From the IMG/VR virus record IMGVR_UViG_2778261270_000003: a stretch of DNA of 30,023 nt; one strand, 5' to 3'. A program made the translations under genes and the position numbers. The notes beneath the pieces are model-generated. The model was not told the origin of the DNA. It searched no databases and worked only from the letters and a program-made list of their open reading frames with translations. The stretch comes from a virus (Duplodnaviria; Heunggongvirae; Uroviricota; Caudoviricetes). Positions 20 through 19,657 of the stretch are shown here, one piece after another (the stretch's first letter is position 1; every line of letters starts with the position of its first letter).

Positions 20-1315
20 TTAATTTTTCATTGCTTCGTTATGGGGCATGGTTGGGGCAAACTCGCTTAACTGTGTATTTAACAAAGCTACCTGTGCATT
101 ATTGTTTTCAGACATCCATTTTCCGTATACCTGAAATACCATTTGCGCATCTGCATGGCCCATCTGGTTTGCTATAAATGCCGGGTTAGCACCAGCTGTC
201 AGCGACCAGCAGGCATAAGTATGTCTCGACTGATATGATTTTCGATGGCGGAGTCCGGCACGTTTTATCGCTGCGTCCCACATCTGCCTTATTGAGTCAA
301 CGGTAAAATGGTCACCATAATTTTTTACTCTCGCTGACACTTCAGGTTGAAAAACAAAGGTGCATTTTTGTTTTTCTGTTCTGCCATACTCTCTGAGGTG
401 AACATCAATGATATGCTCTTTGCTCAGTCTCGTTAATGTCATCTGACTCCGGAGAGCGTCGATTGCTGGCTTAATAAGATGAATGACCCGATTGGTTCCC
501 GCCTGTGTTTTTGGTACCGTGAAACGGTCTTTTGCTAAATTTCTCCTGATCATCATTGTTCCATTTTTCAGATCTATGTCCTCCCATCCAAGTGCACACA
601 GCTCACCAGGGCGAACTCCAGTATAAACAGAAACACACCATAAATTTTTTGCTTGCTGATTTCTGCACGCATCGATAAGACGGATAAATTCTTCCCGCGA
701 AAGAGGATCCGGAATGGTTCTTGATTCCTTTAATGGCGAGATCCCCTTAAACGGATTATCTGCCAGGTAACCGTTATCAACACCAAACTGGAACACGGCG
801 TTAAGATTTGTCATGTAATTATTTACAGTTACAGCCGATCTCCCTGGTTGTGTAACAATATAGTTACTTTTGGGGATCTGGTATCCAGTCAGTAACTCTT
901 TACGAACCTCCAGTAATTTTTCTTTATTAATCGATGAGGCAAGATTTTTTTCACCGATTATGCTCAGGATATTTTTGATGACGGCACGGTATGTGTTGAG
1001 TGATGTTTTGGCGACTTCAGTTTCTTTCAGTGCCAGAAATTTTTCAGCCAGTTCTTTTATGGTTAAATCTTGTCGGGCCTCACCAAATTTTTCCAGATTG
1101 CGTGAGGAGGGAAACTGTTTTGCATAGTCGAAAACACCAGTTTTTATTGCGTAACAAACAGAGGAGCGTAGTTCACCTGCAACGCGCCTGTTTTTTGCTG
1201 TGTCAGGAACCCCCAGATTTTCCCTGACTCTTACGTCTTTATAAACAAACCAGATACGTAATTTCCCTCCATGGTTTTCCACGCCTGTCGGATATTTCAT
1301 TTCAACTTCTCTCAT
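20..1315 (-). CDS. Phage tyrosine integrase (site-specific recombinase)
   Basis: 431-aa ORF at the prophage edge. C-terminal region has tyrosine-recombinase-like motifs (SRHTYACW ... HADAQMVFQVYGKW). Canonical position next to an excisionase-like gene. Alternative ATG at 1300 (MKYPTG...). Confidence 0.85.
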   Translation of the reverse strand: MREVEMKYPTGVENHGGKLRIWFVYKDVRVRENLGVPDTAKNRRVAGELRSSVCYAIKTGVFDYAKQFPSSRNLEKFGEARQDLTIKELAEKFLALKETEVAKTSLNTYRAVIKNILSIIGEKNLASSINKEKLLEVRKELLTGYQIPKSNYIVTQPGRSAVTVNNYMTNLNAVFQFGVDNGYLADNPFKGISPLKESRTIPDPLSREEFIRLIDACRNQQAKNLWCVSVYTGVRPGELCALGWEDIDLKNGTMMIRRNLAKDRFTVPKTQAGTNRVIHLIKPAIDALRSQMTLTRLSKEHIIDVHLREYGRTEKQKCTFVFQPEVSARVKNYGDHFTVDSIRQMWDAAIKRAGLRHRKSYQSRHTYACWSLTAGANPAFIANQMGHADAQMVFQVYGKWMSENNNAQVALLNTQLSEFAPTMPHNEAMKN

Positions 1316-1658: not shown

Positions 1659-4145
1659 TTAAGAATCAGCCTGACTCGGGATCAGTTTTTGCCAGATAAC
1701 TGAAACGTATTTTGCCTGGTAACGGGCGTCATCAAGTGCATTATGGCGCTCACCTTCGAATGGAATAGCCGTTCTGGCATCGAAGTCTATGGCTTTCCCC
1801 AGCTCAACGATTGTGCGTACATCGCGATCGTTGTAGTAACGCCACGGGCAGGGGATCCCCTGCCGTTCGTATGAACGGCGCAAAATCGTGTTGTCGAAGT
1901 TGGCTCCATTTCCCCAAACCTGAACAAAAAATTCACCGGAGTTTTCGTCGATAAATTCTCGCAATTGTAACAGTGCATCATCTAACGGGATTTCATCGGT
2001 CATAATGGCAGATTGCGCTTCGCGTGATTGCTTAAGCCACCATTTAATGGTGTCCCGATCAATGACTCCGCCAGCAGTTTCCAGATCGATAGTCTTACTA
2101 AATTCCGGTCCCATATCTCCGGTTTGCGGATCGAAAAATATTGCACCTATTGAGATGATCGGGGCATCAGGATTTTTTCCCATGGTTTCAAGGTCGATCA
2201 TTAGATGGTCACACGTCCTGCTGGTGGATGTGATTTCGTGATGACCGTTCACCTTAATTGGGTGATCTGCCGTCTCGCCAGTTTCATTATCGCTATTGTG
2301 ATGCTGATTGCCGCCAGTGTTCTCCTTGTGTGGATGTTCAGCGCCTTCCATTTCCTCCGGATCATCTTCCTGAACTTCAACCTGATACTCTTCATCGAAT
2401 GTTTCTTGGTATGTTGCGTCGCCCATCACCGCGCCACAATCAGGGCAGTTGCCGCCGCCGGTCTGACCGCAGGCGGTGCAGACTTTTTCCACTTCCTGTT
2501 GCGCTACTGGTTCAGGCTGTTTCGTTTCTGGCTCGTTTTGTAACGCATTTGGACTGTTTTGTTCCGCTTTTTGGTAGTTCCGTTCCGATTCATGCTGGTT
2601 CTGGTTCACAGAATCGCGGGTCTGGAGCCCCTTAACCCATTTCGGATCATTCGGGTCACTAATCCCTTCAACAAATTCACCACGTGATGCAGCAAGCAAC
2701 TTATCGGCGTCAGGCTGGCTGATATTGGCTGCCTGCATAATTTTGTTTACTTCGTCAGCGGTAACTTTTATCGGCTCTGGTTGTTCTGAATCTTCAGCGG
2801 TATCTACATTTTGCGGTAAGCCCGTGTATGTGCCATTTTTTCGGGCAAAATATTCTTCTTTTGTGATTTCAGTGGCGCCAGCAGCCAGTGCCTTATCCAG
2901 ACCAGAGAGTTTGTTTGCGCGACCGTATTTTTCTCCGTCCTTATCTGCGAAGAGGAAATAGAACGGCCCCTCACGCTCTACAGATGGTTCAGCTTCCGGC
3001 GCGGTTTCATTTTTTGGGATATCAGATACCTCAGTTTCCACTGCATCAGTTTGTGTTTCTGATGACTGGAGAACATCAACAGTGCCCAGGTCTGTTTCTT
3101 CATTCTCAAACACGCCCTTTGTCGTCAGGTATTCGCAGATATATTTGTTCAGTGCTACGGGATCTTTGTGAATGTCGATCGGACGCTCACGGACAAGGCC
3201 AAAAATAGTTTGGCGGTCGTAGCGAAGGGCATCAGGCTGTTTGCGCATTGATGCCGAGATACGCTTCCAGTCTTCGCGGTCGTTGTCGATAACTTCTTTT
3301 TTTGCCCAGCGATGGATGCTGCCGTCAATGTTTCCGGCATCCACATCACTAGGCCAGAGAGCGTAGGCCAGTTCGTCATCCAGTGTTTTCCATGTCTGCT
3401 TGTATTCGCGATGAATGGCAGCAATGACCGGGCTGATTTTTCCTGTTGAATTTTCAGTGTACTGTTGATTGGCTCTGGCGCGGGCGAGATCAACAACAGA
3501 CGTGTATTTTCCGGTTTCCTTGCGTTCACCTTCGCGACGTTTTTTCCAGATGCGCATCTCTGCCTGAATTTCGGGCCATTTAGCACCAGGAATACATTTA
3601 TGCTTAACCCACCCAATGGCGTGCAACTTAAGCTCCGGATACATGGCGTTAACTTCTGGCATTTTCATCAACGCTTCAACGATATGTCCGTCGAATGTTG
3701 CCATGTCTTCCTGCAACAATTCCTGTGCGCTAATAACCATATCAACGGTGATGTTTTCACATGTGTCGAACTTAACCATGACAGCGTTCTGTACTTCAGG
3801 GGCCAGCTTGTCAAAAGTGACGTTCATCGGATCGGATTCAGTCTCAACCGGGACAAAAGAAGCAGACTCCTCATCCCAGCGGTTTTCCTGCATATATTCA
3901 GCATCCCATGAATCGAGGGCAGGGCGGGGTATGCCAGGTTTATCCTCGCAGACAATAAATTTATAAGCGCAGTCCTGAGCAGCCGGATAATGTTCCAGGA
4001 ATTGCCAGTGAAATTTTGCTCGAGCACGGCGTTCGTCGCCAGCTTCAATGGCTGTGGCTACAGCCACAGCGCCTTCTTCCCTTGTTGCCAGTTCGTCAGG
4101 AATAGCGGCGCAAATAAAGACTTTACTCATTTGTTTTAACCTCAT
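1659..4145 (-). CDS. Large prophage exonuclease with C-terminal DnaQ-like DEDDh 3'-5' exonuclease domain; central zinc ribbon and acidic linker
   Basis: 828-aa ORF. C-terminal Exo I (MIDLETMG), Exo II (NGANFDNTIL) and Exo III (HNALDDARYQAKY) motifs. Zinc-ribbon-like CTACGQTGGGNCPDCG and long acidic low-complexity segments. Probable start at ATG 4130 (MSKVF..., GAGG 9 nt upstream) rather than 4145. Confidence 0.8.
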   Translation of the reverse strand: MRLKQMSKVFICAAIPDELATREEGAVAVATAIEAGDERRARAKFHWQFLEHYPAAQDCAYKFIVCEDKPGIPRPALDSWDAEYMQENRWDEESASFVPVETESDPMNVTFDKLAPEVQNAVMVKFDTCENITVDMVISAQELLQEDMATFDGHIVEALMKMPEVNAMYPELKLHAIGWVKHKCIPGAKWPEIQAEMRIWKKRREGERKETGKYTSVVDLARARANQQYTENSTGKISPVIAAIHREYKQTWKTLDDELAYALWPSDVDAGNIDGSIHRWAKKEVIDNDREDWKRISASMRKQPDALRYDRQTIFGLVRERPIDIHKDPVALNKYICEYLTTKGVFENEETDLGTVDVLQSSETQTDAVETEVSDIPKNETAPEAEPSVEREGPFYFLFADKDGEKYGRANKLSGLDKALAAGATEITKEEYFARKNGTYTGLPQNVDTAEDSEQPEPIKVTADEVNKIMQAANISQPDADKLLAASRGEFVEGISDPNDPKWVKGLQTRDSVNQNQHESERNYQKAEQNSPNALQNEPETKQPEPVAQQEVEKVCTACGQTGGGNCPDCGAVMGDATYQETFDEEYQVEVQEDDPEEMEGAEHPHKENTGGNQHHNSDNETGETADHPIKVNGHHEITSTSRTCDHLMIDLETMGKNPDAPIISIGAIFFDPQTGDMGPEFSKTIDLETAGGVIDRDTIKWWLKQSREAQSAIMTDEIPLDDALLQLREFIDENSGEFFVQVWGNGANFDNTILRRSYERQGIPCPWRYYNDRDVRTIVELGKAIDFDARTAIPFEGERHNALDDARYQAKYVSVIWQKLIPSQADS

Positions 4146-7492: not shown

Positions 7493-8542
7493 GTGCGGGT
7501 ATTACTTAGACCTGTTCTGGTGCCTGAGCTTGGGCTGGTGGTCCTTAAGCCGGGCCGTGAATCCATACAGATATTTCATAATCCTCGAGTGCTGGTGGAA
7601 CCGGAACCAAAAAGCATGCGTAATCTGCCATCCGGAGTCGTTCCTGCCGTTCGCCAGCCGCTGGCGGAAGACAAAACATTGCTGCCGTTTTTTAGTAACG
7701 AACGGGTGATTCGTGCTGCTGGCGGCGTTGGCGCATTGTCCGACTGGCTATTACGTCATGTTACATCCTGCCAGTGGCCTAATGGCGATTACCATCACAC
7801 TGAAACAGTCATTCACCGTTATGGTACCGGCGCAATGGTGTTGTGCTGGCACTGCGACAACCAACTGCGTGACCAGACATCGGAATCACTGGAGCTGCTT
7901 GCTCAACAAAATCTGACAGCATGGGTGATTGACGTCATCCGTCACGCAATAAGCGGTACGCAGGAGCGGGAATTATCTTTGGCTGAATTATCCTGGTGGG
8001 CGGTCTGCAATCAGGTGGTGGATGCACTACCTGAGGCTGTATCGCGTCGTTCGCTGGGATTACCAGCGGAAAAAATCTGCTCGGTGTACCGCGAAAGCGA
8101 CATCGTACCGGGAGAGCAGACCGCCACCAGCATATTGAAACAACGCACAAAAAATCTTGCACCGTTGCCTTACGCCCACCAGCAACAAAAATCACCACAG
8201 GAAAAGACGGTGGTAAGCATCACCGTTGATCCAGAGTCTCCGGAATCTTTCATGAAGCTGCCTAAACGTCGCCGCTGGGTTAAGGAGAAATACACACGTT
8301 GGGTTAAGACACAGCCGTGTGCTTGCTGCGGTATGCCAGCCGACGATCCGCATCATCTGATTGGTCACGGGCAGGGCGGAATGGGAACAAAAGCACATGA
8401 TCTCTTTGTGTTGCCTTTGTGCAGAAAGCATCACAACGAGCTGCATACGGATACAGTGGCATTTGAAGATAAGTATGGCTCCCAACTGGAGCTGATATTT
8501 CGTTTTATCGATCGCGCGCTGGCAATTGGCGTACTGGCGTAA
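7493..8542 (+). CDS. ydfU: YdfU-like DUF968 protein with C-terminal HNH-type zinc-binding nuclease motif
   Basis: 349 aa from GTG 7493 (GGAGG RBS); the track ORF begins at an upstream in-frame GTG 7454. C-terminus CACCGMPADDPHHLIGH...LPLCRKHHNELH is an HNH-like signature. Position between rem and Q as in Qin. Confidence 0.8.
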   Translation: MRVLLRPVLVPELGLVVLKPGRESIQIFHNPRVLVEPEPKSMRNLPSGVVPAVRQPLAEDKTLLPFFSNERVIRAAGGVGALSDWLLRHVTSCQWPNGDYHHTETVIHRYGTGAMVLCWHCDNQLRDQTSESLELLAQQNLTAWVIDVIRHAISGTQERELSLAELSWWAVCNQVVDALPEAVSRRSLGLPAEKICSVYRESDIVPGEQTATSILKQRTKNLAPLPYAHQQQKSPQEKTVVSITVDPESPESFMKLPKRRRWVKEKYTRWVKTQPCACCGMPADDPHHLIGHGQGGMGTKAHDLFVLPLCRKHHNELHTDTVAFEDKYGSQLELIFRFIDRALAIGVLA

Positions 8543-8555
8543 GTGGAGAACGAGC

Positions 8556-9308
8556 ATGAACCTTGAAGCCTTACCAAAATATTACTCCCCAAAATCTCCA
8601 AAATTGAGCGATGACGCTCCAGCGACAGGCACCGGTTGTTTAACAATTACGGATGTAATGGCAGCGCAGGGGATGGTGCAGTCGAAAGCACCACTTGGGT
8701 TGGCCTTATTTCTGGCAAAAGTTGGTGTTCAGGACCCTCAGTTTGCGATTGAAGGCCTGCTAAATTACGCGATGGCACTGGATAACCCGACATTGAACAA
8801 ATTGAGTGAAGAAATCCGGTTACAGATTATTCCTTACCTCGTGAGTTTTGCCTTTGCTGATTACTCCAGGTCTGCGGCAAGTAAGGCTCGCTGTGAGCAT
8901 TGTTCAGGTACGGGATTTTATAATGTATTGCGCGAAGTGGTGAAACACTACAGACGCGGGGAATCTGTAATCAAGGAAGAATGGGTGAAGGAACTATGTC
9001 AGCATTGCCATGGTAAGGGCGAAGCCAGCACAGCGTGCAGAGGGTGTAAGGGTAAAGGGATTGTTCTGGATGAAAAAAGAACCCGGTTTCATGGCGTACC
9101 GGTATATAAGATTTGTGGGCGTTGTAATGGAAACCGGTTTAGTCGTTTACCGACCACGCTGGCACGACGTCATGTCCAGAAGCTGGTACCAGACCTGACC
9201 GATTATCAGTGGTATAAGGGGTATGCGGACGTCATTGGTAAACTGGTAACAAAGTGCTGGCAGGAAGAAGCATACGCGGAAGCGCAATTGAGGAAGGTGA
9301 CGAGATAA
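8556..9308 (+). CDS. quuQ: Late-gene antiterminator Q
   Basis: 250 aa from ATG 8556 (track ORF begins at upstream TTG 8526). Cys-rich zinc-binding cluster CEHCSGTG...CQHCHGKGEASTACRGCKGKG typical of Q-family antiterminators; immediately upstream of a candidate late promoter. Confidence 0.85.
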   Translation: MNLEALPKYYSPKSPKLSDDAPATGTGCLTITDVMAAQGMVQSKAPLGLALFLAKVGVQDPQFAIEGLLNYAMALDNPTLNKLSEEIRLQIIPYLVSFAFADYSRSAASKARCEHCSGTGFYNVLREVVKHYRRGESVIKEEWVKELCQHCHGKGEASTACRGCKGKGIVLDEKRTRFHGVPVYKICGRCNGNRFSRLPTTLARRHVQKLVPDLTDYQWYKGYADVIGKLVTKCWQEEAYAEAQLRKVTR

Positions 9309-9729: not shown

Positions 9730-9942
9730 TCATGAAAGGTAAACATTGGCAGCTGAAGGGCCACGCAGACCATTTATCCGGCAAAATTCCACGCGTAATC
9801 CGGTGGTAATTTCTTCTGCATCGCGGAGATTGAGCGCTGAAACATGAAGCTGGACATCGATACGACCATCGGATGGGGTGATAAGACCCTTGCCGCTTTT
9901 GCCGTCAAAGGTTTTGACAATTCCTGTCATTTTACGGGACAA
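9730..9942 (-). CDS. cspF: Cold-shock-domain protein (CspF/CspH-type, non-canonical RNP motifs)
   Basis: 70-aa product [26 protein letters not shown]...; cold-shock-domain fold, divergent from the adjacent cspB as in Qin. Confidence 0.9.
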
Positions 9943-10242
9943 AAAAATTCCTTAATACTGATAACTTGGCGCACTATACACACGTTCCTGAAGAAAGCTA
10001 TAGTTTTTTGATGGGGTTGAAGATGGCTGGATGTCTAAAATAAACATTGCTTCATATGTTCAACTATGCGTTAATGATTGCGTCGGTTTGAAGAACAGAC
10101 GATATACGAAGTAGTTTACTAAAGCAGTTCTCATTTCAGGTGTTATTCACTTATTCCTTCTTTGAGTCTCTCCAATTAAGTACGAAGTCGTTTCTGTTAT
10201 GCAAACCATTTATGCCGAAAGGCTCAAGTTAAGGAATGTAGA

Positions 10243-10458
10243 ATGTCAAATAAAATGACTGGTTTAGTAAAATGGTTTAACGCTGATAAAGGTTTCGGCT
10301 TTATTTCTCCTGTTGATGGTAGTAAAGATGTGTTTGTGCATTTTTCTGCGATTCAGAATGATAATTATCGAACCTTATTTGAAGGTCAAAAGGTTACCTT
10401 CTCTATAGAGAGTGGTGCTAAAGGTCCTGCAGCAGCAAATGTCATCATTACTGATTAA
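10243..10458 (+). CDS. cspB: Cold-shock protein CspB
   Basis: 71-aa product [37 protein letters not shown]... with RNP1/RNP2 motifs; long AT-rich 5' leader. Confidence 0.9.
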
Positions 10459-10739
10459 AATTCATCGCTCGTCTGTATACGATAACGAAGAAGGCTGATG
10501 CCTGAGTAGAGATACGGACAGAGTAGTGAATATTGGATCTCTTTAATAAAAAGTAAGGAGGTCCAATACATGAAACAATGGCTAGCATATTTGGCAAAAT
10601 CTTAATCAGGAAAAGTATGCTAACCATTGTGGTGAAGTGCAGGTTTGCTGCATGAATAGTTTTACAGCAGAAGCTAACTGCTGGCATGGCAAAACAAAGT
10701 GCGTAAGTGGATGACTCCCACAAAAAGCACCACAATCTC

Positions 10740-12767: not shown

Positions 12768-13129
12768 GGTAATATTAAATCGGAACATTTACATCGCGGA
12801 ATGTAAAATTTAAATAAAAAGGACTCTTCCATGAGCCAAAATTCCTGAAATCTTAAGGGTAAGATAAAAGGTCTTAATCAGAATGACACGTTTTATTAAT
12901 AAATAAAGCTATTCTTTCATTGCTGTGTTTTTCTTTACAAAAGTAATCCTTGCTATGGGTGGTTAATCATGCGTTAATGGTGTTCTGGTTTGTTACAAAT
13001 TTATCTGAAGCAGTCATTGTTATAATTTTATTATTTGTACCTCTTGAGATTTCCTTGTTGGTTTTTCTCTCTGATATTTTTTTTCGGACCATTCTGCCCA
13101 AGGGCTAATTTCTTCAAAAGGTAATAATT

Positions 13130-13342
13130 ATGTCTAACAAAATGACTGGCTTAGTGAAATGGTTTAACCCTGAAAAAGGTTTTGGTTTCATCACGCCGAA
13201 AGATGGCAGCAAAGATGTGTTTGTCCATTTCTCAGCAATTCAGAGCAACGATTTCAAAACATTAACTGAGAATCAGGAAGTTGAATTTGGTATTGAGAAC
13301 GGACCTAAAGGTCCTGCCGCTGTTCATGTAGTGGCGCTTTGA
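13130..13342 (+). CDS. cspI: Cold-shock protein CspI
   Basis: 70-aa product [42 protein letters not shown]...; long AT-rich leader upstream. Confidence 0.9.
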
Positions 13343-13370
13343 GGTAGACAATATTACAAACCATATTCAC

Positions 13371-13613: not shown

Positions 13614-13844
13614 ATGAAAAAAATCATAGTTTTTTTTAACTCTGAACCAGCAGTGGTAGTGCCAGCGATGACTGGAGTTAACACCATCATGCGTGAATAT
13701 CCAAATGGCGAAAAAACACACCTTACTGTAATGGCCGCAGGGTTTCCATCTCTGACCGGAGATCATAAAGTCATTTATGTAGCCGCGGATCGACATGTTA
13801 CTTCAGAAGAAATTCTGGAAGCAGCAATAAGGCTCTTGAGTTGA
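13614..13844 (+). CDS. YnfO-like small prophage protein
   Basis: 76 aa from ATG 13614 (MKKIIVFFNSEP...); track ORF starts at an upstream in-frame codon 13572. Position matches the Qin cspI/gnsB neighbourhood. Confidence 0.55.
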   Translation: MKKIIVFFNSEPAVVVPAMTGVNTIMREYPNGEKTHLTVMAAGFPSLTGDHKVIYVAADRHVTSEEILEAAIRLLS

Positions 13845-14012
13845 TTTGATGCTATTGCATTGATAATTCAGGAAAATTCTCTTTGTCTGTTTGTGTAAAA
13901 TTTAGACTATCGTATGTTGATTATTGCGATGTTTCATCTTATCTTTTACACGTTTGCACCATATAATCGACTTACTGTGTAACTGGAAAGTCATAACAGA
14001 CTAAAAGAGGAA

Positions 14013-14189
14013 ATGATGAATATTGAAAACTTAAAAACAAAAGCAGAAGCAGATATTTCTGAATATATAACAAAAAAAATTATTGAACTTAAGAAAAAGA
14101 CCGGGAAAGAAGTTACCAGTATTCAGTTTACCGCACGGGAAAAAATGACGGGTCTTGAAAGCTATGATGTCAAGATTAATTTAATCTGA
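14013..14189 (+). CDS. gnsB: GnsB (secG/fabA suppressor family)
   Basis: Not in track (<60 aa). MMNIENLKTKAEADISEYITKKIIELKKKTGKEVTSIQFTAREKMTGLESYDVKINLI; tandem ATG (14013/14016); AGAGGAAA RBS. Confidence 0.85.
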   Translation: MMNIENLKTKAEADISEYITKKIIELKKKTGKEVTSIQFTAREKMTGLESYDVKINLI

Positions 14190-14218
14190 TGTATTCAATA
14201 ATAAAATTTATCCATAAA

Positions 14219-14241
14219 CCTCGTTTTTACGGGGTTTTGTT
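14219..14241 (+). terminator. Weak intrinsic terminator after gnsB
   Basis: CCTCG-TTTTTA-CGGGG (one G:U pair) followed by TTTTGTTATATTT. Confidence 0.4.
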
Positions 14242-14340
14242 ATATTTGAATGGTTCCGAATATCTAAATCACAATTGTTGATGGTTTTTATTAAACCAAT
14301 GCAGTCCGGCTCAGGAGTGAGAGAAGCCGGACGTTATGGT

Positions 14341-14751
14341 TTAGCGTGGTAAGATCTGTGTAGTTTTCTGGATGCTTTCAGTAAATAGTAATGAATTATC
14401 AAAGGTATAGTAATATCTTTTTTGTTCGTGGATATTTGTAACCCACCGAAAAACTCCTGCTTTAGCAAGGTTTCTTCTGTATTCCTGAAATGTGATCTCT
14501 CTGGATTTCAGCTTATTAGAGGTCGTTTCTATAAGATGCCTATCCTTTGAAAATTTGACAGACACAATGTTTTTTAGGCCCTTTAATAACACTGTATTAT
14601 CATTTTTTAATACAATATGAACATTCTCTGTGGCTAAATAGTAAATGTAATGTGAGACATTGTGACGTTTTAGCTCAGAATAAAACCATTGATAGTTTAA
14701 ATCGTTTCGAACTTTATCAAATATTTGTTTAAAAATGACTACCTGATCCAT
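14341..14751 (-). CDS. ydfO: YdfO (DUF1398-family prophage protein)
   Basis: 136 aa from ATG 14751 ([14 protein letters not shown]..., GGAAGG RBS); track ORF begins 5 codons upstream. Matches size and position of Qin YdfO. Confidence 0.8.
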
Positions 14752-14808
14752 AGATAAACCTTCCATGTGATATGAGGGGGCGTAGTCTGCACGATTATCT
14801 AAATTGCT

Positions 14809-15042
14809 TCAATCTGGTCTGACCTGTTTTCTGAGCAATTCAGTAATGTCACTCTTTTCTTTGTTTGCTTCAGAAGAAACTCTTTTTTCTGAGCACAGTC
14901 TCCGGCGGCAGGCTTCAATGACCCAGGCTGAGAAATTCCCGGACCCTTTTTGCTCAAGAGCGATGTTAATTTGTTCAATCATTTGGTTAGGAAAGCGGAT
15001 GTTGCGGGTTGTTGTTCTGCGGGTTCTGTTCTTCGTTGACAT
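14809..15042 (-). CDS. Small ribbon-helix-helix-like DNA-binding protein (DUF3950/YlcI-like, NFS motif)
   Basis: 77 aa; basic N-terminal tail then RNIRFPNQMIEQINIALEQKGSGNFSAWVIEACRRRL, which reads as beta-strand / helix / G-x-N-F-S turn / helix. Sits 57 nt upstream of ydfO on the same strand and abuts the cos region. Confidence 0.55.
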   Translation of the reverse strand: MSTKNRTRRTTTRNIRFPNQMIEQINIALEQKGSGNFSAWVIEACRRRLCSEKRVSSEANKEKSDITELLRKQVRPD

Positions 15043-15214
15043 GAGGTTGCCCCGTATTCAGTGTCGCTGATTTGTATTGTCTGAAGTTGTTTTTACGTTA
15101 AGTTGATGCAGATCAATTAATACGATACCTGCGTCATAATTGATTATTTGACGTGGTTTGATGGCCTCCACGCACGTTGTGATATGTAGATGATAATCAT
15201 TATCACTTTACGGG

Positions 15215-15420
15215 TCCTTTCCGGTGATCCGACAGGTTACGGGGCGGCGACCTCGCGGGTTTTCGCTATTTATGAAAATTTTCCGGTTTAAGGCGTTTCC
15301 GTTCTTCTTCGTCGTAACTTAATGTTTTTATTTAAAATACCCCCTGAAAAGAAAGGAAACGACAGGTGCTGAAAACGGGCTTTTTGGCCTCTGTCGTTTC
15401 CTTTCTCTGTTTTTGGCCGT
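15215..15420 (+). other. cos site (cosQ-cosN-cosB); 12-nt cohesive end GGGCGGCGACCT at 15242-15253
   Basis: ...CGGGTCCTTTCCGGTGATCCGACAGGTTACG | GGGCGGCGACCTCGCGGGTTTTCGCTATTTATG... reproduces the phage lambda right-end/left-end junction as I recall it, followed by the Nu1-binding cosB region and Nu1. Confidence 0.9.
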
Positions 15421-15430
15421 GGAATGAACA

Positions 15431-15950
15431 ATGGAAGTCAACAAAAAGCAGCTGGCTGACATTTTCGGTGCGAGTATCCGTACCATTCAGAACTGGCAGG
15501 AACAGGGAATGCCCGTTCTGCGAGGCGGTGGCAAGGGTAATGAGGTGCTTTATGACTCTGCCGCCGTTATAAAATGGTATGCCGAAAGGGATGCTGAAAT
15601 TGAGAACGAAAAGCTGCGCCGGGAGGTTGAAGAACTGCGGCAGGCCAGCGAGGCAGATCTCCAGCCAGGGACTATTGAGTACGAACGCCATCGACTTACG
15701 CGTGCGCAGGCCGACGCACAGGAACTGAAGAATGCCAGAGACTCCGCTGAAGTGGTGGAAACCGCATTCTGTACTTTCGTGCTGTCGCGGATCGCAGGTG
15801 AAATTGCCAGTATTCTCGACGGGATCCCCCTGTCGGTGCAGCGGCGTTTTCCGGAACTGGAAAACCGACATGTTGATTTCCTGAAACGGGATATCATCAA
15901 AGCCATGAACAAAGCAGCCGCGCTGGATGAACTGATACCGGGGTTGCTGA

Positions 15951-15976
<26 letters not shown>
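15431..15976 (+). CDS. nu1: Terminase small subunit Nu1
   Basis: 181 aa MEVNKKQLADIFGASIRTIQNWQEQGMPVL...; matches recalled lambda gpNu1 essentially throughout. Confidence 0.97.

Positions 15977-19657
<3,681 letters not shown>

Follow-up and report, generated by a model that had tools for sequence, protein, structure and literature searches.

Two small genes lie side by side near the cos site of an intact, lambda-like Escherichia coli prophage, and the question they raise is whether they work as a pair. The prophage is contained in the window analysed here, i.e. the whole stretch of 30,023 nucleotides of IMG/VR record IMGVR_UViG_2778261270_000003. An initial annotation, made from the letters alone, placed two minus-strand genes at 14809-15042 (77 aa) and 14341-14766 (141 aa), both of which are present in the ORF list, and proposed that they might constitute an antitoxin-toxin or a dedicated regulator-effector pair. 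Our analysis points elsewhere: ynfO and ydfO are probably two independent accessory genes in the non-essential lysis-cos region of a lambda-like prophage.

Genomic setting and gene identity

The integrase gene (20-1315, minus strand) and the gene of antiterminator Q (8526-9308) are separated by a segment that includes exonuclease and DUF968 genes. Q is followed by genes for a P21-type holin, a DUF1327 protein, a lysozyme and a DUF2514 protein, and then by cspI, ynfN and gnsB. The last of these (14013-14189, plus strand), annotated as a GnsA/GnsB 'toxin', is convergent with ydfO and belongs to a gnsB-ydfO block common to phages without ynfO. On the other side, cosN (GGGCGGCGACCT, 15242-15253, plus strand) is ~200 nt distant from the ynfO ATG, on its upstream side; beyond it come three cosB repeats, R3, R2 and R1 (15294-15406), the Nu1 small terminase gene (15431-15976, plus strand), gpA, and head and tail genes. 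ynfO and ydfO occupy the accessory region with lysis genes on one side and cos on the other, and both are, as initially described, antisense to late transcription, i.e. to the Q-holin-lysozyme operon as well as to Nu1-A. A 37-aa ORF at 15058-15171 was rejected as a gene, because it falls in what is probably the 5' leader of ynfO and is not supported by any family match. Rfam and tRNA scans gave no match within the interval.

The ynfO product (14809-15042, minus strand) is a member of the YlcI/YnfO (DUF3950) family according to Pfam (PF13132; E 2.7e-21, 75.6 bits against a cut-off of 25) and NCBIfam (NF041551, YlcI_YnfO_N; 36.6 bits, cut-off 30), and it also matches phrog_949. The product of ydfO (14341-14766, minus strand) belongs to DUF1398 (PF07166; E 1.7e-46, 157.5 bits, cut-off 22), and its identity in 140 of 141 residues to PDB entry 2HH8 (2HH8_A, 'hypothetical protein ydfO') bears out the name YdfO that it had been given at the start. 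A 1.55-kb region around the two genes recurs with 100% identity in numerous E. coli chromosomes under the annotation ynfO/ydfO/gnsB/nohA. The family matches, the identity to 2HH8 and the chromosomal identity together establish that these are the known Qin-type ynfO and ydfO genes. The Qin prophage of E. coli K-12 carries the same genes (b4533-b1549) in the same order beside nohA/cos. In contrast to Qin, which is defective, the prophage in the window is intact: its gpA is full-length, and it possesses head and tail genes. There is nothing unusual in the locus, which is part of the lambdoid mosaic and had been annotated before.

As dN/dS is about 0.2 in both genes, they are real coding sequences. 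The y-ome survey of 2024 counted both among the uncharacterised genes. Our literature search found no activity assigned to YdfO. ydfO has been reported to be induced by ionic liquid and to be differentially expressed upon DicC induction. Its lambda homologue lambdap78 is non-essential in lambda (PMC10695390).

The start of ydfO deserves a comment. Position 14751 is an internal ATG preceded by a better Shine-Dalgarno sequence (GGAAGG), from which a 136-aa protein would be made, i.e. one of the length of most homologues; this is probably the true start. The spacing of 57 nt between the genes given in the initial annotation is correct for this ATG, whereas the distance to the ATG at 14766, the start of the 141-aa form, is 42 nt.

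YnfO and the ribbon-helix-helix fold

The initial annotation recognised in YnfO a ribbon-helix-helix (RHH) DNA binder with a basic tail and a G-x-N-F-S turn. The turn is present (G33-S-G-N-F-S38), complete with the S/T/N helix cap seen in RHH domains, and its N-F-S motif shows little or no variation within the DUF3950 family. The basic stretch also exists, but it lies chiefly in the N-terminal arm (MSTKNRTRRTTTRN) and not in a tail. The RHH core, residues ~10-50 (14893-15015, minus strand), consists of this basic arm, the strand NIRF, helix A (residues 19-32), the GSGN turn and helix B, which begins at residue 37.

The RHH assignment itself held in structural comparison, while sequence matches all stayed below threshold. 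An AlphaFold monomer built on the family alignment reached a pLDDT of 81-86 over the core and contains helices at 19-32 and from 37; its beta-strand/helix A/helix B topology superposes on solved RHH domains. When this model was compared with the PDB by Foldseek, the top 50 matches were almost all RHH proteins, aligned over 36-43 columns at ~2 A rmsd; they included StnY of the CopG family, the MazE9 N-domain, Arc, NikR, VapB, KacA, ParD, CopG, YiiF, CopA and MatP. StnY was the top structural match and, at the same time, the second-best match in profile-sequence comparison. Individual Foldseek E-values were weak (at least 0.66), because the domain comprises only ~40 residues and a monomer model was used.

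Searches by sequence or profile yielded no significant match between DUF3950 and curated RHH families; the best was Pfam RHH_6 (E 0.092, for one member). Profile searches of PDB sequences with the YnfO family produced RHH matches below threshold, CopG-family 9kkd reaching E 0.5-0.6, and a search with the family alignment at E<=10 for a bridge to curated RHH families returned DUF3950 proteins only among its best 120 matches. Neither BLASTP nor hhalign linked YnfO or its family profile significantly to Arc and CopG, though hhalign placed the RFP of YnfO onto the RWP of Arc, at a probability of 2.8%. Sequence methods alone thus give no proof, but the structural enrichment is unambiguous, and on the strength of the model we accept that YnfO has an RHH fold.

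The closest known counterparts are the Arc/Mnt repressors of phage P22 and the CopG/StnY repressors, which resemble YnfO in size and beta-alpha-alpha topology, superpose on it at ~2 A, and share with it an R-[W/F]-P motif leading into helix A, a glycine turn and a basic N-terminal arm. They differ in showing no significant sequence similarity to it, and YnfO bears in addition a non-conserved tail of 27 residues. YnfO would form a dimer, or a dimer of dimers, and read DNA by its N-terminal arm and beta-strand.

The family is small. Among 1.84 billion representative sequences we found 120 clusters (50% identity) at E<=1e-3, many of them frameshifted junk. The genuine core is composed of a basic arm, K-x-I-R-F-P, a helix, a variable loop and N-F-S-A-W-V-x-[ED]-A-C-x-x-K-L. 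Most members are proteins of 51-67 aa with no extra domain, and the YnfO tail past the RHH core (residues 51-77) is not conserved across the family.

A candidate operator upstream of ynfO

The region upstream of ynfO contains CACGTCAA, followed by an inverted repeat at 15112-15144, ATCAATTA N17 TAATTGAT, which we regard as a candidate YnfO operator/promoter. The repeat is perfect over 8 bp, and its 13-nt arms are 85% complementary; it is unique in the window and was matched in 0 of 100 shuffles. It spans a -10-like TATCGT (15127-15122, minus strand), and E. albertii has TATCAT at this site. The 120 nt upstream of the ynfO ATG are nearly invariant in lambda-type phages, whereas the adjoining 60 nt are variable.

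A scan of 13800-15500 for the sigma-70 consensus detected no strong promoter upstream of either gene, and the proposed operator is missing upstream of Stx-phage homologues that have the same N-terminal arm; for these two reasons we infer, rather than assert, the operator assignment. The half-site was not enriched elsewhere in the window or in the one Stx phage locus searched. Most probably YnfO represses its own weak promoter via the inverted repeat. The new elements that this locus offers are the assignment of DUF3950 (YlcI/YnfO) to the RHH fold, a probable role as repressor and a concrete candidate operator.

The two families do not travel together

The initial annotation pointed to another E. 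coli prophage with a similar arrangement, and such a case does exist: in DLP12 and lambda, DUF1398 and DUF3950 genes accompany Nu1 (loci L001, L017 and L029). The suggestion drawn from it, that of a conserved cassette, failed in the co-occurrence analysis, since the genes were not co-conserved, which is the very result that the annotation had named as speaking against it.

Among 50,697 phage records, DUF3950 was found in 155 and DUF1398 in 43, the latter all from lambda-like E. coli phages, so that at least 112 of the 155 DUF3950 records are without DUF1398. In Stx-converting and related phages, DUF3950 is located between KilA-N/Rz and HNH-TerS-TerL, unaccompanied by DUF1398. The reverse situation is represented by phage Tritos and contig L170, in which DUF1398 and ybcW occur without DUF3950, beside a different small terminase. 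Within 7 kb of ~39 DUF3950 loci outside Escherichia no DUF1398 gene was detected with an HMM built from close relatives, which distant members may escape.

The same holds true for bacterial genomes. Of 5,426 E. coli genomes, 4,184 have the ynfO core, at 9,861 places in all and in up to 12 copies each, and 3,011 have full-length genes of the ydfO/ybcV type; O157 genomes have 8-12 ynfO-like copies against a single ybcV. A third E. coli DUF1398 paralogue, ycgX, stands alone beside bluR in nearly all strains. On the other hand, the two families are almost always together in lambda-type phages of E. coli, and DUF3950 lies upstream in 77 of 78 DUF1398-anchored viral contigs, but these are near-identical copies of one cassette and for this reason say little about co-occurrence across diversity.

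These data bear on the proposal of a type II toxin-antitoxin pair, in which YdfO would be the toxin and YnfO an RHH antitoxin that neutralises it through its C-terminal tail, the part by which an antitoxin would grip its toxin. YnfO does resemble RHH antitoxins such as ParD, CcdA, MazE9, VapB and KacA, several of which were among its Foldseek matches, in its RHH N-terminal domain and in being encoded ahead of another gene on the same strand; a small RHH gene placed first and a tail of 27 residues past the core recall ParD, CcdA and RelB-type antitoxins, and even the 'toxin' label of the neighbouring gnsB could be cited in favour of the idea. However, in contrast to these antitoxins, YnfO has neither a conserved toxin-binding region past its DNA-binding domain nor a faithful partner. 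Partner fidelity fails in both directions, most DUF3950 proteins are short and have only the one domain, ydfO has a history of its own, and the YnfO tail derives from a mosaic junction (see below). PADLOC gave no match for ynfO, ydfO, gnsB or ynfN. Moreover, YdfO overproduction is reported to be beneficial under oxidative stress, as cited in PMC4077768; this reported benefit and the solitary occurrence of ycgX argue against toxicity. The toxin-antitoxin reading is largely refuted and we regard it as scarcely credible; the two genes are annotated Qin-type genes, unfit for listing as a candidate toxin-antitoxin or defence cassette.

Mosaic structure of the region

The separate histories of the two genes can be traced in the DNA. 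A blastn comparison with lambda revealed 98.75% identity over 14880-16000, i.e. over ynfO codons 1-54, the upstream region, cos and Nu1, whereas ydfO and its lambda homologue share 84% identity at the DNA and 79% at the protein level. Between the two blocks, in the 3' tail of ynfO (14826-14879, minus strand), the window contains 54 bp without lambda homology where lambda has 613 bp including ybcW/lambdap79. The blastn comparison also covered L169, Tritos and L170, and the homology with the latter two ended at 14829. This replacement and this end point place a mosaic junction inside the ynfO 3' tail, and the 27-residue tail of YnfO is, judging from these alignments, a by-product of that junction.

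Synonymous divergence tells the same story. For the same pairs of loci, dS was 0.40-0.67 in ydfO and 0.00-0.14 in ynfO codons 1-54, i.e. at least 4-fold apart, and the gap persisted where the genes are directly adjacent (L171, L005). It appears that the RHH core of ynfO, its upstream region, cos and Nu1 form one mosaic module that is inherited jointly, and that ydfO belongs with gnsB in a separate one.

The right end of lambda (lambdap78, lambdap79 and an unannotated ylcI-like ORF) and DLP12 (ybcV-ybcW-ylcI-nohD) agree with the window in the order and strand of DUF1398, DUF3950, cos and Nu1. They differ in that ~530 bp, with the oppositely oriented ybcW/lambdap79, separate the DUF1398 gene from the DUF3950 gene, and in the YlcI protein, which has 64 aa and a different tail. 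lambdap79 is the reported trigger of the Vulcan defence, and lambda-vir escapers from Vulcan lose it by recombination with Qin in exactly this slot (bioRxiv 10.64898/2026.09.04.749371), which means that the slot is exchanged between exactly these two arrangements. The direct adjacency of ynfO and ydfO of the Qin type is the allele of the slot without ybcW/lambdap79.

Does ydfO depend on the ynfO promoter?

A second reading links the genes through transcription: ynfO and ydfO of the Qin type would be co-transcribed from the ynfO promoter, and YnfO autorepression would set the level of YdfO. Such an operon is compatible with the location of both genes on one strand with a gap of only 42-57 nt, and no terminator-like structure was found in the stretch between them (RNA fold z -0.66), so that transcripts from the ynfO promoter may extend into ydfO in this allele. 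The ynfO-ydfO arrangement also recurs in many E. coli prophages, and the region upstream of ynfO was once cloned as 'the ydfO promoter' (PMC4077768 primers). The cloned fragment, however, gave no useful expression. The supplement of that paper does not contain ynfO, and co-induction with ydfO cannot be read from it.

Other evidence speaks for a separate expression of ydfO. A putative promoter on the minus strand (14794-14827) is composed of a PdhR-like box, aacaggtcagaccagat (14827-14811), and a -10-like GATAAT (14799-14794); the same box has been described between ynfO and ydfO in K-12 (PMC7660256). This putative promoter belongs to the DNA that ydfO has in common with ynfO-less phages, in which ydfO retains its upstream 60 nt with both elements. 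Directly past the ydfO stop, a GC-rich hairpin (14305-14331, minus strand; RNA fold z-score -3.6) is likely to mark the 3' end of the transcript. The separation of the lambda and DLP12 homologues by an opposite-strand gene and the recombination boundary indicated by dS also count against a common operon, which we consider unlikely.

These observations fit an independent accessory gene, which ydfO most likely is: a 'moron' situated between lysis genes and cos on the opposite strand, with a 3' hairpin and, in the 60 nt ahead of its start, what is probably its own promoter, the elements of which are weak matches. Any read-through from ynfO would be a by-product of the mosaic and not a co-evolved pairing. 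The proposal of a dedicated regulator-effector pair did not survive, given that the families are not co-conserved, have different histories and meet at an unconserved YnfO tail. Most likely, ynfO itself moves together with the cos-Nu1 module and encodes an RHH repressor that regulates its own gene.

DUF3950 homologues in satellite elements

The ~39 DUF3950 loci that a genome scan revealed outside Escherichia, in Enterobacterales such as Salmonella, Serratia, Klebsiella, Xenorhabdus, Pectobacterium, Tatumella, Proteus and others, have a common layout. DUF3950 is the lone gene on the opposite strand, with a P4-type integrase, AlpA and AntA on one side and a DUF4222/D5-primase operon on the other; these loci are P4-like or phage-inducible-island satellites.

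Most of the satellite DUF3950 genes are preceded by three repeats of 11-13 nt whose positions relative to the ATG (about -107, -85 and -37) are conserved, while each element has its own repeat sequence. Directly adjoining the second repeat is ACGTCAA, whose complement TTGACGT resembles the -35 of a divergent promoter, and the third repeat comes after TATAGT or TATGGT. In a comparison restricted to satellite homologues, operator distance correlated with distance in the five residues before the beta-strand (r 0.67) but not with that in the remainder of the domain (r 0.14), with p ~5e-4 in a partial Mantel test; as relatedness among the elements is only partly controlled, the covariation is supportive and not proof. 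The pattern is as expected if the RHH N-terminal arm and strand read the repeats and, at the level of sequence comparison, argues that the DUF3950 family binds DNA.

The satellite genes recall master repressors of the Stl type known from SaPIs, which are divergent from the replication operon: DUF3950 likewise faces the DUF4222-primase operon, and the operator-like repeats overlap both putative promoters. The analogy is limited to the satellite homologues, as the divergent side in the window is cos/Nu1, with no recognisable divergent promoter. Their operator layout and the covariation make the satellite proteins good candidates for the master regulators of those elements.

In several satellite proteins DUF3950 is fused to the DNA-binding domain of a small terminase (Pfam Terminase_2, E 1.6e-11). 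One might imagine that DUF3950 proteins are immunity-type RHH repressors of a large group of P4-like and capsid-forming island satellites in Enterobacterales, with operator specificity set by the arm, and that lambdoid helper phages keep ynfO/ylcI beside cos for cross-talk with satellites or packaging. The helper protein would silence a resident satellite or be sensed by it, and the fusions would be a trace of that conflict. We deem this whole scenario improbable.

A related idea, to which we give little credence, is that YnfO binds near cos and modulates the access of terminase or interferes with competing elements. It draws on the position of lambdoid ynfO, which is always beside and divergent from the first packaging gene, be that Nu1 or HNH-TerS, on the inheritance of the ynfO core with cos-Nu1, on the near invariance of the 120 nt separating ynfO from the cos region, and on the DUF3950-Terminase_2 fusions. 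Against it, lambda can grow without this region, as literature cited in PMC10695390 indicates. Moreover, the satellite DUF3950 gene lies near int/alpA and the primase operon, away from packaging genes, and the geometry of the satellite operators is that of a transcriptional repressor.

Organization of the ynfO-ydfO region

Only one TGA and 14 sense codons separate ynfO from ydfO (window 14767-14811), the two genes being in the same reading frame, and a database protein of 233 aa (P0122) is a fusion carrying both Pfam domains, DUF3950 and DUF1398. The ybcW/lambdap79 gene, which in lambda lies on the opposite strand between the equivalents of these two genes, is absent from the window (14826-14879, compared with 3006-3618 of the lambda locus, L001). 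According to a 2026 preprint (bioRxiv 10.64898/2026.09.04.749371), the small protein ybcW/lambdap79 of lambda reportedly triggers the Vulcan NADase defence. The prediction would be that phages carrying the Qin-type allele, which lacks this gene, escape the Vulcan trigger.

A 'ydfO promoter' construct of K-12 was inactive in the assay of its authors (PMC4077768). As it ends within ynfO (primer GCAAAAAGGGTCCGGGAAT, approximately codons 30-36 in K-12; the equivalent in the window is about 14935-15042 and upstream), the sequence assayed was the region 5' of ynfO and not that directly 5' of ydfO. A 37-aa ORF with a GTG start (15058-15171, minus strand), annotated in some lambda records as a hypothetical protein, is likely spurious, since it is located within the probable 5' leader/promoter region of ynfO and lacks family support.

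Convergent to ydfO is gnsB (14013-14189, plus strand), which Pfam and RefSeq annotate as a GnsA/GnsB 'addiction module toxin'. The two genes share a hairpin region (14216-14237) and belong to one mosaic block.

DUF3950 genes of satellite elements

Upstream of the DUF3950 genes in the loci L043-L081 we found three operator-like repeats, at about -107, -85 and -37 (e.g. L054 6890-6998; also L075, L081 and L063). Their positions are conserved among these loci, their sequences are specific to each element, and they flank TTGACGT, a likely divergent -35, together with TATAGT or TATGGT, the -10 of the DUF3950 gene itself. Moreover, the five residues preceding the DUF3950 beta-strand co-vary with the operator type (r 0.67, partial Mantel p ~5e-4). 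This repeat layout and the covariation suggest that, in P4-like and phage-inducible-island satellites, DUF3950 is the protein that represses the DUF4222-primase operon.

A capsid-forming, island-like satellite of E. coli CP027459.1 (L162) contains two DUF3950 genes, at 7590-7772 and 8001-8363; proteins P0328, P0310 and P0354-P0360 were considered with this locus. One of the two genes encodes a 120-aa protein in which DUF3950 is joined to the DNA-binding N-terminal portion of a small terminase (Pfam Terminase_2). The satellite locus adjoins a prophage, whose own DUF3950 gene is located beside HNH and a Terminase_2 fragment.

Sequences outside the ynfO-ydfO region

Assemblies of unrelated bacteria contain the lambda right end (ylcI, ybcW, ybcV), with 98% identity, on contigs of about 3.5 kb (L009-L037, L055 and L062) whose labels include Streptomyces, Cohnella, Flavobacterium and Pedobacter. 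These contigs are probably lambda control DNA spiked in from sequencing kits, an origin that also accounts for the many frameshifted 'YlcI/YnfO' proteins in metagenome databases.

Almost every E. coli genome has a third DUF1398 paralogue, ycgX, which adjoins bluR-bluF on the chromosome (L176 3724-4128), and neither DUF3950 nor cos occurs in its neighbourhood at this locus.

Elsewhere in the window, the prophage cold-shock genes are preceded by full-length cspA thermoregulator RNA elements (Rfam RF01766), one at 10082-10474 (159 bits) and one at 12984-13369 (111 bits), both on the plus strand.
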